The position numbers and the translations under genes were made by a program. 64,000 nt of DNA from an uncultured bacterium (GTDB taxonomy: Bacteria; Patescibacteriota; Minisyncoccia; Phycocordibacterales; PALSA-1337). The stretch is from NCBI GenBank assembly GCA_963701025.1, contig OY969557.1, positions 737,953-801,952 on the forward strand. Direction: 5' to 3'. Shown here one piece after another: positions 6,232 to 64,000 of the stretch (its first letter is position 1; every line of letters starts with the position of its first letter). The notes under the pieces are model-generated. The model made no database searches. It saw nothing but the letters and a program-made list of their open reading frames with translations, and was not told the origin of the DNA.

Positions 6232-7065
6232 ATGAAACTGACCTATTTCGACATCCACGGCCACGTGAACTTCGCGGCCTATGACACGGACAGGGAAGAG
6301 GTCATAAAACGCGCGCAGGATGCAGGTGTCGGCATGATCACAGTCGGCACGCAGATAGACACGTCGAAGAAGGCAGTAGAACTGGCGGAGACTTATGAGA
6401 ACATGTGGGCAATTATTGGTCTGCATCCCATCCACACGTCGAAATCTCACCACGATGAAAAAGAGCTTGGCGAGAGAGGCAAAGAATTCACTTCACGCGG
6501 AGAGGTTCCTGACATTGAAGCATATAAGAAGCTGGCCAAGCATCCGAAAGTCGTGGCCATCGGCGAATGCGGGCTTGATTTTTATCATCTCGACGAAGAT
6601 TCGCGGGCCACGCAAGTAAAAGTATTCGAAGCCATGATAGATCTGGCAAATGAGGTCAATAAGCCTCTGATGCTTCATATCAGAAATGGTTCTGGGCGCT
6701 CCGCCTATAATGATGCATACGACATATTGAAGAACCGGGCCAAGGTCAAGGGCGATCTGCACTTCTTCGCCGGAAGTATAGAAGAGGCGAAGCCGTTCCT
6801 TGAGCTTGGATTCTCATTCTCGTTCACGGGCGTAGTGACGTTCACGCGCGATTACGATGAGATCGTGAGATATCTGCCGCTTGAGCGGATCATGTCCGAA
6901 ACTGATTGCCCGTATGTCACGCCAAAACCTAACAGGGGAAAGAGGAATGAGCCGGCGTATGTCGTCGAAATCGTGAAGGCCATCGCCCGCATCCGCGGCG
7001 AGGATGAAGCCGTCGTTACCCGCCAATTGGCCGAAAATGCTCGGCGTTTCTTTGGACTCGCCTAA
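6232..7065 (+). CDS. TatD family hydrolase / DNase
   Basis: Motifs 'DIHGHVNF', 'IGECGLDFYH' and the C-terminal 'ETDCPY' are present. The position right after metG is conserved synteny in many bacteria. Confidence 0.85.
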   Translation: MKLTYFDIHGHVNFAAYDTDREEVIKRAQDAGVGMITVGTQIDTSKKAVELAETYENMWAIIGLHPIHTSKSHHDEKELGERGKEFTSRGEVPDIEAYKKLAKHPKVVAIGECGLDFYHLDEDSRATQVKVFEAMIDLANEVNKPLMLHIRNGSGRSAYNDAYDILKNRAKVKGDLHFFAGSIEEAKPFLELGFSFSFTGVVTFTRDYDEIVRYLPLERIMSETDCPYVTPKPNRGKRNEPAYVVEIVKAIARIRGEDEAVVTRQLAENARRFFGLA

Positions 7066-7103
7066 ACTCTTCGGACTCGCCTAAGCTACGCCCCCGTGGA
7101 CAG

Positions 7104-7174
7104 ATCTTCATCGAAAATTTATCGGATCTTCATCGTTTCTTGAGGCTTTCTTGAGCGTTTCTTTATCTCGCTCT
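7104..7174. repeat. Intergenic repeat copy A (~70 nt), between tatD and rpsF
   Basis: It carries the internal direct repeats GATCTTCATCG x2 and TTTCTTGAG x2. See copy B at 37220. Confidence 0.6.
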
Positions 7175-7362
7175 GGTATCCTGCAGGCACGCCTCGGAAT
7201 CCGCCAGCCGGTTGACAGGCCATTGCGGGGCGGCCAACGTCATGGTAGGCTCATGTCATTAACAAGTAATCGCAGTTAGTCCCTGGCGACAGGGTTCCGC
7301 GAAAAGCTTGCCTCCGTCAGTCGACGGATGGCGGACCGAAACGGACCACTGGCTGCAACAAA

Positions 7363-7893
7363 ATGACTGAAACTACCCATGAAGACCGCCCGGCGGTCTA
7401 CGAGATCGGATACCTCATCGCCCCTTCCATTCCGGAGGAGAAAGTTCCGGCTGAAGCGGACGCGGTGAGCAAGATCATACGCGATGCCGGAGCGTCGACT
7501 ATAGCCGAAGAGGCGCCGCACCGGATGAAGCTCGCCTACGAGATGCGCCGAAAGACGGTGTCAGGCTCGTACGACAAGTACGATGAGGCCTATTTCGGCT
7601 GGATCAAGTTCGAAGTCGGTTCGGAATCCATCGAGACTGCCAAGAAGGCCATCGAGGCCCACCCGTCGGTCTTGCGAATGCTCCTCATCACGACCACGCG
7701 CGAGAACACCTATCTAGGCAAGCGCGCGCCGGCCATAGCCGCGGAGATCGCCGGAAGAAAATCAGCCGAGGCTTCCGGAGACAGGCAACCTCCGAAAGGT
7801 GTCGGCAAAACGACCGAGGCCAAGAATGAAGCCGCCCCCGCTTCCATCGAAGAGATGGACAAGTCCATTGACGCTATGGTCAAAGAGGCATAG
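7363..7893 (+). CDS. rpsF: 30S ribosomal protein S6 with a C-terminal extension
   Basis: 'YEIGYLIAP...RMKLAYEM' matches the S6 core. It is the first gene of the conserved rpsF-ssb-rpsR order. Confidence 0.8.
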   Translation: MTETTHEDRPAVYEIGYLIAPSIPEEKVPAEADAVSKIIRDAGASTIAEEAPHRMKLAYEMRRKTVSGSYDKYDEAYFGWIKFEVGSESIETAKKAIEAHPSVLRMLLITTTRENTYLGKRAPAIAAEIAGRKSAEASGDRQPPKGVGKTTEAKNEAAPASIEEMDKSIDAMVKEA

Positions 7894-58725: not shown

Positions 58726-59178
58726 TTAGGCGAATTCGCCTCTCGGAGGTTCCGGCTCCATGAAGCGGCGATGTACGGCATACAAGGGGTCGAACCCCAG
58801 AGGTCTCATGTATACGCCGCTATCCTCGAAGCCATTCTTCTCGAAGAATCGCACGTAGAAGAACGCGTTTTCCCCCAAGTCCTGCAGGAAGAATATGTCG
58901 CCAGTTTCGGTCTCGTACGGCCCGAAGAAGTATTCCAACATGTTCGGGCCGAAATCATGGACGTATCCGTCTTCTCGCGTCCATTTCCTAGTCTTCGGGT
59001 TCCATAACCTTCCTTCTGCCAGCTGGAGCTGCCGGATATGTCCCACAGGCCACCAGAGAGTGCCGATGACCTTTCCCACGAATATGTCTTTGCCGACATA
59101 CGGCACTTCAGCCATCATTCCATCCAGCCTGTACATATCGTCGCTTAGATCATTGAATGTGATCATTCTTTCGCTCAT
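58726..59178 (-). CDS. Hypothetical protein
   Basis: A 150-aa ORF, aromatic-rich, with no recognised family. Confidence 0.4.
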   Translation of the reverse strand: MSERMITFNDLSDDMYRLDGMMAEVPYVGKDIFVGKVIGTLWWPVGHIRQLQLAEGRLWNPKTRKWTREDGYVHDFGPNMLEYFFGPYETETGDIFFLQDLGENAFFYVRFFEKNGFEDSGVYMRPLGFDPLYAVHRRFMEPEPPRGEFA

Positions 59179-59351: not shown

Positions 59352-59615
59352 TCAGGCTGACAATTGTTTTACTTCGACCACTTTGAATTCCTCGACCACC
59401 AGATTGACGAGGAATTTATTGCACATGGCCGTGGCTTGCTCCTTGGCGTCGGTCTCGTTCGCGGCTTCGATCGTGAGGATGAAGCACCTGCCTATAGTGA
59501 CCTTCGAGACTATTTTGAATCCCAGATCATGGAGTCCGTGGAGGACGGGCCCTTCTTCCGGGTTCAAAACGGCAGGTTTCCTGAATGAATAGACCGTTAC
59601 TTGGAATTTCAGCAT
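59352..59615 (-). CDS. purS: PurS-like protein (the small subunit of phosphoribosylformylglycinamidine synthase), standing alone
   Basis: 'KFQVTVYSFRKPAVLNPEEGPVLHGLHDLGF...ANETDAKEQATAMCNKFLVNLVVEEFKV' matches the PurS fold signature. No purL or purQ lies nearby. Confidence 0.65.
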   Translation of the reverse strand: MLKFQVTVYSFRKPAVLNPEEGPVLHGLHDLGFKIVSKVTIGRCFILTIEAANETDAKEQATAMCNKFLVNLVVEEFKVVEVKQLSA

Positions 59616-59854
59616 ATATTTCCTTTTCGTTTTTTGCTGGACTGCCTATACATTACTCATTTCCAGTAAAATGGCAAGTATATAGATTTTTCTTGCCAAA
59701 AATAATGGTGAGAGTACAATTGTCCCATTGTACGTACAGCCAGTTAGCAGTTGGAGGTTGTGCGAAGCTAAAGAATCTAGGAATTAAGCCGTTTATCCGG
59801 GTATTTGTTTGTCCACAGAGTACCCGACTTATCAGTCTGAACAAAGGTATAATT

Positions 59855-60349
59855 ATGAACAATATGGCCTTATCATCGGTGCTTAGAGCGCAGAATATCG
59901 CCGAGTATTTTCTATGGAAAGGGCAGGTTGAAAAGGAGCCTGTCACCAATAAGAAGCTGCAAAAATTGCTTTACTATGCTCAGGCATGGTCACTTGTTAT
60001 GCGCGACAAAAAACTTTTTAATGATAAGATCGAAGCTTGGGTGCATGGTCCTGCTATACGCGAAGTATATTTGGAATACAAGAATTTTGGTTTCAATCCG
60101 ATCGAGAAGAAGATAAACGAGAAGACGATCGAGTCTGTGCCTGCTGATGTAAAGAAATTTCTGGATGAAGTATGGTCTGTCTATGGCAAACGCGATGCGG
60201 CGTATTTGGAACATCTCACTCATTCGGAAGAGCCGTGGCGAAAGGCTCGCGCGGGCGTTGAGCCTCACATAGGTTCAGAAAATGAGATCTCCTTGGAGAG
60301 CATGAAGGAATTCTATTCCTTGAAATTAGAAGAAGCCAAAAAGATCTAG
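59855..60349 (+). CDS. Panacea-domain (DUF4065, SocA-like) putative antitoxin (internal-Met start of the listed 254-aa ORF)
   Basis: 'KKLQKLLYYAQAWSLVMRDKKLFNDKIEAWVHGPAIREVYLEYKNFG' is the DUF4065/Panacea signature. An RBS-like AAAGG sits 9 nt upstream. The stretch upstream of this Met overlaps purS on the other strand. Confidence 0.6.
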   Translation: MNNMALSSVLRAQNIAEYFLWKGQVEKEPVTNKKLQKLLYYAQAWSLVMRDKKLFNDKIEAWVHGPAIREVYLEYKNFGFNPIEKKINEKTIESVPADVKKFLDEVWSVYGKRDAAYLEHLTHSEEPWRKARAGVEPHIGSENEISLESMKEFYSLKLEEAKKI

Positions 60350-60352
60350 TCC

Positions 60353-60823
60353 ATGGAGATTCCTGATTCCAATAATAAGGAGGCATCTCCTGACGCTGTA
60401 CCGAGCGCGGTTGCAGAATTGCCGCAGGCTGAAGAAGCGCCTGAAATATCGCCGTATAAAATTTCGTTCGCTGAATATAAAGGCAAAGAGTGCCAGATGG
60501 ATGGTATGACTGGATATAATGCGAAGGCTACCCTCATGATCTTGAGAGATGTCGGTGTTTACTATACAAGTGCAGAGAATTTCTGGTCCAAGACTTCCAT
60601 ACAAACGAAGCCGATAATCCGAGAAGGTGATTACAGGTTTCTCTATAAGGGTTTAGCCGAAGATTCAGAGCTAAAAGAAATAAAATACCAGCACGCACGT
60701 AAAGGCGTCGATATAAGATTATTCTTTTTTACTCTTGAAAAAGAAAGGACATTCTATTTAGTAGCTGCAAAACAAGATCATATTGATACCAGTAAAGGAG
60801 GTTTTCGTAGAAGAAATCGATAG
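60353..60823 (+). CDS. Uncharacterised partner of the Panacea protein; candidate toxin with a possibly RelE/ParE-like C-terminal region
   Basis: It starts 4 nt after the Panacea gene's stop. The C-terminal 'DIRLFFFTLEKERTFYLVAAKQDH' resembles the terminal strand pattern of RelE/ParE-fold toxins. The N-terminal 35 residues are acidic and low-complexity. Confidence 0.35.
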   Translation: MEIPDSNNKEASPDAVPSAVAELPQAEEAPEISPYKISFAEYKGKECQMDGMTGYNAKATLMILRDVGVYYTSAENFWSKTSIQTKPIIREGDYRFLYKGLAEDSELKEIKYQHARKGVDIRLFFFTLEKERTFYLVAAKQDHIDTSKGGFRRRNR

Positions 60824-60899
60824 TGCCATATTAAATCCGAGCGTAAGAAGATGGCTAAGTTATTCGTGGAGATTCGTGATAAAATAAATCATTGATTCC

Positions 60900-61230
60900 A
60901 TGCCCACCCCTCGCTCCAAGATCGTCGTCTATGTCCCTCTCACTCACGCCGATGCGGTGCGTGACGCCATCGGCGCGGCGGGCTCCGTCAGCTGACGGAG
61001 GAAAGCTGGGGAGGTATTCATATTGCATATTTTCGGTGCGCGGCGTCGGGCGATTCAAGCCAGAGAGAGGCGCCATGCCCCATATCGGCACGGTCGGCAA
61101 GCTGGAAGCGGTCGAGGAAGAGCGGATCGAAGTCACTTGTGAGGATGGCGCGGTCGAACACGTCATTGCCGCCATCAAGAAAGCGCATCCGTATGAGGAG
61201 GTGGCACTCGATGTGTATAAGCTGGAATAA
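60900..61230 (+). pseudogene. NIF3 (YqfO/YbgI) family C-terminal-domain remnant with a frameshift near 60975-60990
   Basis: Frame A reads 'MPTPRSKIVVYVPLTHADAVRDAIGAAGSVS*'. The next frame continues 'GKLGRYSYCIFSVRGVGRFKPERGAMPHIGTVGKLEAVEEERIEV...KKAHPYEEVALDVYKLE', matching the NIF3 C-terminal half. No N-terminal half is present. Confidence 0.45.

Positions 61231-63260: not shown

Positions 63261-64000
<740 letters not shown>

Follow-up and report, generated by a model that had tools for sequence, protein, structure and literature searches.

Panacea is a hyperpromiscuous antitoxin domain (Kurata et al., 2022, PNAS, PMC8832971), and proteins that carry it have been validated experimentally as direct-binding antitoxins against many unrelated toxins (PMC8832971; Ernits et al., 2023, PNAS, PMC10440598). 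The founding Panacea-domain antitoxin is SocA of the Caulobacter SocAB system (type VI), whose toxin, SocB, inhibits the replication clamp. In the PanAT systems described by Kurata et al. (2022) and Ernits et al. (2023), an antitoxin gene (panA) with an above-threshold Panacea match comes first and is followed, after a gap or an overlap of a few nucleotides (nt), by the toxin gene (panT). The two-gene architecture of these chromosomal modules is kept across taxa while the flanking genes vary. The same features were found in a gene pair at positions 59855–60823 of the window, by which we mean the whole analysed stretch of 64,000 nt from contig OY969557.1 (assembly GCA_963701025.1) of an uncultured member of the Patescibacteriota. 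We consider it rather probable that this pair is a horizontally acquired, chromosomal, bicistronic PanAT module of type II, and that its toxin is a divergent protein of the RelE/ParE fold with an acidic tail of about 33 residues.

Both open reading frames (ORFs) are present on the forward strand where an earlier note on this DNA had placed them (Table 1). That note let the partner gene begin 4 nt past the panA stop, which is correct: the stop codon of panA and the ATG of panT are separated by 3 nt (TCC), and the two genes share one reading frame. The DUF4065/Panacea signature quoted there ('LQKLLYYAQAWSL...EAWVHGPAIREVY') is also present in the first product. PanA matches Pfam family PF13274 (SocA_Panacea) over residues 35–128, with an E-value of 2.2e-21 and 77.3 bits against a cutoff of 25.7, and phrog_1281 over residues 11–163 (E 9e-47). 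It has the stand-alone Panacea architecture; no helix-turn-helix (HTH) or other N-terminal domain was found, and the N-terminal 34 residues gave no HTH match. For stand-alone Panacea proteins, direct neutralisation of the toxin was shown to be possible by Ernits et al. (PMC10440598). The stop-to-stop frame of panA reaches upstream to position 59585, and one public gene call uses a start that yields 214 amino acids (aa). Since the lengths of PanA homologues are 156–169 aa, position 59855 is the likely start. The number of PanA homologues retrieved at E ≤ 1e-5 was 2480.

The earlier note had proposed that homologues of the partner be surveyed for adjacency to Panacea genes, and the outcome of this survey was uniform. 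A PanA gene lies directly 5' of the PanT homologue in all 28 loci recovered (22 of 22 after removal of redundancy). Seven of these contexts come from metagenomes or metagenome-assembled genomes (MAGs), and in each the Panacea gene is immediately 5', with flanking genes that vary from context to context. A scan of GTDB species representatives with a profile of the closest PanT relatives (A1, described below) yielded 17 further loci, which belong to Saccharibacteria, Kaiserbacteria, Paceibacterota, Zambryskibacteria, Kazan, Moraniibacteria, Portnoybacteria, Vogelbacteria, Doudnabacteria, and one Ignavibacteria MAG; owing to the profile used, this list of taxa is biased toward close relatives. 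In 20 measured pairs, namely that of the window and 19 further non-redundant loci that represent no fewer than 10 lineages of the Candidate Phyla Radiation (CPR), the spacing between the two genes ranges from -4 to +8 nt. The reverse survey, which started from PanA homologues of 60–73% identity, found a member of the PanT family on the 3' side in four of four loci. Both proteins have large conserved families and their adjacency is invariant, so the pairing is far beyond chance.

The two families have also diverged together. The PanA proteins that are paired with members of the PanT family share a mean pairwise identity of 62% (n = 20), and the pairwise identity matrices of PanA and PanT are correlated (r = 0.68), a value reached by none of 2000 Mantel permutations. 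In addition, a natural PanA–PanT fusion of 306 aa (NGX32563.1; P0092) was found in a Candidatus Anoxychlamydiales MAG and is present on two contigs (Table 1). The window genes are in frame and parted by TAG TCC only; a single substitution would therefore yield the same fusion. In two MAGs, panT is broken into two overlapping ORFs next to an intact PanA (L027, 2950–3395, Ignavibacteria; L028, 678–1123, Doudnabacteria). These split frames could represent toxin decay or assembly frameshifts. Kurata et al. (2022) recognise PanAT loci in silico by a Panacea domain, a conserved two-gene architecture, and the absence of a conserved operon of more than three genes. All three traits characterise the present locus: the flanks differ in every context examined, and an HTH_3 gene upstream of the pair occurs at one locus only (L007).

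The product of the second gene gave no usable match in Pfam, NCBIfam, PADLOC, PHROGs or PDB sequences. A word-indexed search revealed 13 clusters of close relatives at 90% identity. Profile A1 was built from these clusters and searched against 1.84 billion representatives, which expanded the family to 267 clusters at 50% identity (E ≤ 1e-3), mostly from CPR/Patescibacteria; 144 clusters were retained at E ≤ 1e-10. The alignment of these 144 sequences (A2) has a mean column identity of 21%. Against this divergence, seven residues stand out, each being kept in 90% or more of the sequences: Y42, C47, Y94, E109, R122, F124 and H143. The C-terminal string quoted in the earlier note is present in PanT and is the best-conserved part of the family. 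The acidic N-terminus reported there is likewise real, with eight D/E against one K in residues 1–33. These 33 residues are variable across the family apart from two conserved [ILV]-P motifs: I, L or V occupies the first position of each motif in 130 of the 144 sequences, and proline follows in 120 sequences at position 4 and in 108 at position 17. One homologue (P0009) carries the JGI label 'Fe-S-cluster formation regulator IscX/YfhJ'; no member of the family matches such a family, and the label looks like a spurious transfer.

An AlphaFold2 model computed from the 13 close homologues was poor, with a predicted local distance difference test score (pLDDT) of 54, and was superseded by the model based on A2 (pLDDT 86.8; predicted template modelling score 0.75), in which residues 31–140 are mostly above 90. 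For residues 1–30, the block means of pLDDT are 62–67, and there is no predicted secondary structure before residue 30. The remainder contains predicted strands at 36–38 and, short, at 84–87, helices at 54–70, 74–80 and 92–98, and a three-stranded sheet formed by residues 107–114, 119–128 and 133–140. This corresponds to the RelE-type fold, in which a three-stranded antiparallel sheet at the C-terminus packs against a strand and helices from the N-terminus. When the model was compared with the PDB by Foldseek, nine of the ten best matches were chains of the RelE superfamily. The top chains include RelE (1wmi_A, 2khe, 4fxe_E, 4fxh_B; 2khe is RelE of T. thermophilus), HigB2 (8a0x_D, 5ja8) and RelE2 of M. 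tuberculosis (3g5o), while YoeB (7v5y_E) and PfiT (9w3a_A) rank 11 and 14, respectively. Archaeal RelE (1wmi_A) was matched with a probability of 0.99 and a template modelling (TM) score of 0.60 normalised on the target, and E. coli RelE (4fxe_E) with 0.65, the RelE and YoeB chains spanning 0.60–0.65. NTF2-like and other non-toxin matches had probabilities of 0.21 or less.

Profile comparison points in the same direction. The commonest weak Pfam match of the PanT family is Gp49 (PF05973), a family of the RelE clan; it was obtained for 5 of the 144 members with a best E-value of 0.0066, below the gathering score, and is the sole match of the family consensus (E 0.92). A HigB2 query identical to PDB 5ja9_C was aligned to A2 by hhalign, with P 3.4e-4 for the single HigB2 sequence and P 1.1e-4 for a shallow HigB2 profile, the latter at a probability of only 56% and over 26 columns. 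The register places PanT residues 118–143 on HigB2 residues 60–85 and R122 on Arg64, which is catalytically important in HigB2 and corresponds to RelE Arg61 in E. coli (PMC5416850). A relaxed alignment of low confidence sets LKEIKY of PanT on LRKIRV of HigB2 and K111 on Arg51, another of the HigB2 catalytic residues (PMC5416850). The beta3–beta4 hairpin of PanT, 'IRLFFFTLEKERTFYLVA', matches 'SRIIYYFLDEKRRFYLLT' of HigB2 of V. cholerae (5ja8/5ja9; PF06296), and the overall sheet of HigB2 is of the same RelE type. In contrast to PanT with its near-invariant Glu109 and His143, HigB2 uses Arg51, Arg64, Tyr82 and Lys84 and has no Glu–His pair (PMC5416850); it also lacks an N-terminal tail, and its antitoxin is HigA2, not a Panacea protein. 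The impression in the earlier note that the C-terminus loosely resembles toxins of the RelE/ParE fold thus finds agreement in the AlphaFold2 model, the Foldseek matches and the HigB2 profile alignment. The best reading of PanT is a divergent protein of the RelE/ParE superfamily.

Within that fold, a further parallel is offered by the E. coli YoeB–YefM system. The catalytic set of YoeB consists of Glu46, Arg65 on strand beta3, and the C-terminal His83. E109, R122 and H143 of PanT would follow these three residues along the fold in the expected register, as judged from a non-significant alignment, and the position of H143 past strand beta4 appears analogous to that of His83 in YoeB and Lys84 in HigB2. 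YoeB differs from PanT in having no significant sequence match to it, in being paired with a Phd/YefM antitoxin instead of Panacea, and in its length of 84 aa without extensions.

In the mechanism that we propose, panT is probably translationally coupled to panA, and PanA would hold PanT in an inactive state by direct binding; the natural fusion and the co-divergence of the two proteins lend indirect support to such a complex. Were PanA lost or sequestered, as might happen in phage infection or when the cassette is lost, the toxin would be freed, enter the ribosomal A site, cleave mRNA, and arrest translation. A YoeB-like catalytic set would carry out this reaction, with Glu109 and His143 acting as the acid–base pair and Arg122 and Lys111 binding the phosphate. 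PanT is, in other words, probably a ribosome-dependent mRNA endonuclease, and the biological role of the module may be cassette addiction or abortive infection.

Several observations weigh against this picture. The toxicity of PanT and its neutralisation by PanA are assumed by analogy. The Foldseek E-values are modest (0.02–0.2), and the TM scores normalised on the PanT query are 0.35–0.39, low because PanT has about 40 extra residues. No member of the PanT family reaches the curated Pfam or NCBIfam thresholds of the RelE/ParE clan. The probability of the HigB2 profile alignment is low, as given above, and hhalign of A2 against the single E. coli YoeB and RelE sequences returned nothing significant. 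The assignment of Glu, His and Arg as candidate catalytic residues rests on the register of the alignment. The gyrase poisons of the ParE type share the same fold. Finally, no operator-like repeat was found upstream of panA, and since PanA also lacks a DNA-binding domain, the autoregulation typical of type II systems is not evident.

The breadth of the fold leaves room for a toxin that belongs to the same PanAT module and has the same RelE/ParE fold without being an mRNase, acting as a gyrase poison like ParE or on some other target. Proteins of the RelE/ParE fold act either as RNases or as inhibitors of gyrase (PMC10440598). The ParE-family protein PfiT is among the fold matches, the sequence similarity of PanT to characterised RNases is marginal, and for the near-invariant Cys47, Tyr42 and Tyr94 no equivalent is evident in RelE active sites. 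Yet the best fold and profile matches belong to the RNase branch (RelE, HigB2, YoeB, Gp49), the arginine of beta3 falls on Arg64 of HigB2, and near-invariant Glu and His residues accompany it; a catalytic set as conserved as this is not a known trait of ParE toxins. An acid–base pair of the Glu/His kind is typical of RNases of the RelE superfamily (PMC5416850). On balance, a target other than mRNA seems unlikely to us.

Still less likely, in our estimate, is that the pair represents a conserved operon outside toxin–antitoxin biology, in which the RelE-fold protein has lost its toxicity and has some other function, for example in regulation or structure, as the partner to a 'phage-associated' Panacea protein. 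Only about half of the DUF4065 proteins sit in toxin–antitoxin-like loci (PMC8832971), the PanT family stands outside all curated toxin models, and toxicity is assumed by analogy. Against this, the architecture agrees with the in-silico definition of PanAT loci (PMC8832971), and the strong conservation of a small set of polar residues is consistent with catalysis. The distribution of the family is patchy and mobile, the cassette is of low guanine-plus-cytosine (GC) content, what may be decay affects only the toxin gene in the two MAGs with split frames, and defence islands are occasional neighbours. A type VI arrangement as in SocAB, with PanA as an adaptor that delivers PanT to ClpXP and the disordered tail of PanT as the degron, is very improbable, although PanA has a sub-threshold match to the NCBIfam SocA equivalog (E 1.2e-17) and the tail is probably disordered with conserved short motifs, as in degrons: the equivalog match (NF047745) reaches 64.1 bits against a cutoff of 190, the validated PanAT pairs tested by Kurata et al. 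all form stable complexes typical of type II (PMC8832971), a covalent PanA–PanT fusion is hard to square with an adaptor that destroys its partner, and PanT, RelE-like where SocB is a clamp inhibitor, has no discernible relation to SocB, with no match in the family libraries searched.

If the pair is a type II PanAT module, its relation to the 88 published T-clusters of PanT toxins (Kurata et al., 2022, PMC8832971) has to be considered. In the part of Dataset S1 of that study available to us, clusters T14, T28 and T59 pair Panacea with toxins resembling HigB-2, YoeB, ParE or RelE, and the combination of fold and Panacea pairing seen in the window is therefore not new as a kind. One of these, T14, is a HigB-2-like cluster that includes Candidatus Saccharimonas aalborgensis; it shares with the window family the pairing of Panacea with a toxin of the RelE superfamily, and Saccharibacteria are common to both. 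As described in the same part of the dataset, the T14 representative matches HigB-2 at 99.7% HHpred probability, compared with 56% in the hhalign comparison of window PanT with HigB2, and the Saccharibacteria PanA of T14 has an HTH N-terminal domain, whereas window PanA has no N-terminal domain. PanT of the window further differs from T14, so far as that cluster is described there, by its N-terminal tail and an insert of about 40 residues, and it has no above-threshold match to PF06296 or Gp49. Neither a high-confidence HigB-2 match nor an HTH on PanA, the two traits that mark T14 in these entries, was thus found at the window locus.

The PanT family has no Pfam, NCBIfam or PADLOC model, by which it differs from the published PanAT toxins, and its centre of distribution is in CPR/Patescibacteria, a group with very little coverage in the RefSeq-based survey of Kurata et al. 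(2022). In the literature library searched, we found no paper that joins Panacea with Patescibacteria. The earlier note had spoken of a Panacea antitoxin with a possibly new toxin. The Panacea pairing has proved well supported; the newness does not extend beyond the sequence family, since the fold is a classic one. Judged by the lack of a Pfam, NCBIfam, PADLOC or PDB-sequence match, PanT appears to be new at this level only, as a CPR-centred sequence family of RelE-fold PanT proteins that is set apart from T14 by the available description of that cluster.

Two features could nevertheless make the family more than another RelE, which we regard as doubtful. The first is the conserved tail, whose two [ILV]-P motifs and AELP stretch may be the handle by which a stand-alone Panacea protein holds or senses its toxin. 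Ernits et al. (PMC10440598) predicted in one case, with support from mutagenesis, that a stand-alone Panacea protein contacts an unstructured N-terminal region of its toxin. The second is the near-invariant set of Tyr42, Cys47 and Tyr94 outside the canonical RelE active site, which may mean that in CPR bacteria the RelE scaffold acts on another substrate or by another chemistry.

The family adds a sizeable unannotated group, at least 267 clusters at 50% identity, to the PanAT repertoire, and with its placement in the RelE/ParE superfamily, hundreds of gene pairs now called 'hypothetical' in CPR/Patescibacteria genomes could be named by annotation pipelines. These organisms have very small genomes and live as episymbionts; a mobile module for growth arrest in them, at times adjacent to defence genes, would bear on phage resistance or the stabilisation of DNA. 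The conserved tail and the natural fusion also offer a convenient model for toxin recognition by stand-alone Panacea, a question left partly open in the Panacea papers. If our suggestion holds, this tail would amount to a 'Panacea-docking' peptide that can be transferred, and it would help to explain how one antitoxin domain is re-paired with many toxins. The current picture of toxin–antitoxin biology is unchanged by these results, which will not surprise the specialist; their use lies in annotation and in a model of stand-alone Panacea recognition.

Table 1. Positions of the panA–panT genes, of selected PanT residues and regions, and of associated features (window coordinates unless a contig is named).
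Feature	Position	Strand	Remarks
panA	59855–60349	+	ATG at 59855; stop TAG at 60347–60349; 164 aa
panT	60353–60823	+	ATG at 60353; stop at 60821–60823; 156 aa; putative toxin of an unannotated family
PanT residues 1–33	60353–60451	+	acidic tail, probably disordered; [ILV]-P motifs I3-P4 and V16-P17; 'AELP' stretch
PanT residues 34–148	60452–60796	+	RelE/ParE-like core (predicted, AlphaFold2 and Foldseek)
PanT E109 codon	60677–60679	+	strand beta2; E in 136 of 144 sequences; candidate general base/acid; K111 two residues later
PanT R122 codon	60716–60718	+	strand beta3; R in 141 of 144 sequences; candidate transition-state-stabilising arginine
PanT H143 codon	60779–60781	+	three residues past strand beta4; H in 143 of 144 sequences; candidate catalytic histidine
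Low-GC accessory patch holding panA–panT	59616–60890	.	GC 0.40–0.46; edges approximate
Promoter-like site TTGCCA-16-TACAAT	59693–59720	+	about 135 nt 5' of panA; 10 of 12 consensus matches; candidate only
PanA–PanT fusion ORF	L033, 2501–3421		PanA N-terminal; PanT family C-terminal, residues 172–305

The accessory patch that holds the pair (Table 1) contrasts in base composition with its surroundings, where the GC content is 0.55–0.65 on the left side and about 0.56 on the right. The cassette itself has a GC content of 0.423, compared with 0.573 and 0.518 in the flanks. Horizontal acquisition and mobility are the best reading of this difference, taken together with the presence of some homologous cassettes beside defence genes. 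Neither a tRNA gene nor, among the neighbouring ORFs, a match to the integrase family was found beside the cassette. The PanT family had no tblastn match in 50,697 phage records and 72,556 plasmids, and no relatives were detected in the viral contigs of IMG/VR; an origin from a phage or plasmid is therefore unsupported. The scan of the region for promoter and terminator consensus sequences gave no more sites of the kind listed in Table 1 than did shuffled sequence.

Repeats at the cassette are limited to short two-copy ones, which may be due to chance. The first codons of panT (60354–60367, TGGAGATTCCTGAT) recur as a 14-nt near-copy just 3' of the panT stop (60867–60880, TGGAGATTCGTGAT), and a 14-nt imperfect inverted repeat (59861–59874 and 60819–60832) brackets the cassette; either could have arisen by chance.

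The defence genes adjoining some homologous cassettes are SIR2_2, DpnI, Fic, RhuM, and an operon of E2, JAB, ThiF and BubE. On contig L007 (849–7470), the PanAT pair has a Prok-E2/JAB-ThiF/BubE operon with a short HTH_3 gene on one side, and on the other a SIR2_2 gene followed by an ORF of 615 aa; this context is defence-island-like. On contig L003, which carries homologue P0005, a second and different Panacea pair (6379–7454; also on L004, 3419–4494) is located 1.9 kb 3' of the first. It consists of a PanA of 176 aa and an overlapping partner of 182 aa without a Pfam match. A DpnI gene is placed between the two pairs and a Fic gene upstream, so that a small toxin/defence island is formed.

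The genes on both sides of the cassette had been named in the earlier note as a lone purS and a decayed NIF3 fragment. The former is confirmed on the left side (59352–59615, reverse strand; PF02700, E 3e-18). On the right, the gene is indeed broken, and it proved to be a frameshifted gene for a stand-alone NIF3 insert domain (PII-like; 60901–61230, forward strand). It carries a single frameshift near 60985–61000, with the N-terminal part running from ATG 60901 to TGA 60996 and the remainder contained in ORF 60892–61230. The repaired product of 108 aa matches residues 162–260 of the NIF3-related protein 2gx8_A in the PDB (E 3.5e-26). The frameshift could mark a pseudogene or an assembly error.

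Two further observations were made in the window. Between secF and purS, an ORF of 150 aa (58726–59178, reverse strand) has no Pfam or NCBIfam match; its conservation extends at least to the Logan contig L011. Insertions and introns in 16S rRNA genes are common among CPR bacteria. The 16S rRNA match at 63262–63759 (forward strand) covers model positions 9–546 only and is not truncated by the window end, and the 16S rRNA model finds no continuation in the final 240 nt; this suggests an insertion or intron within the 16S gene.

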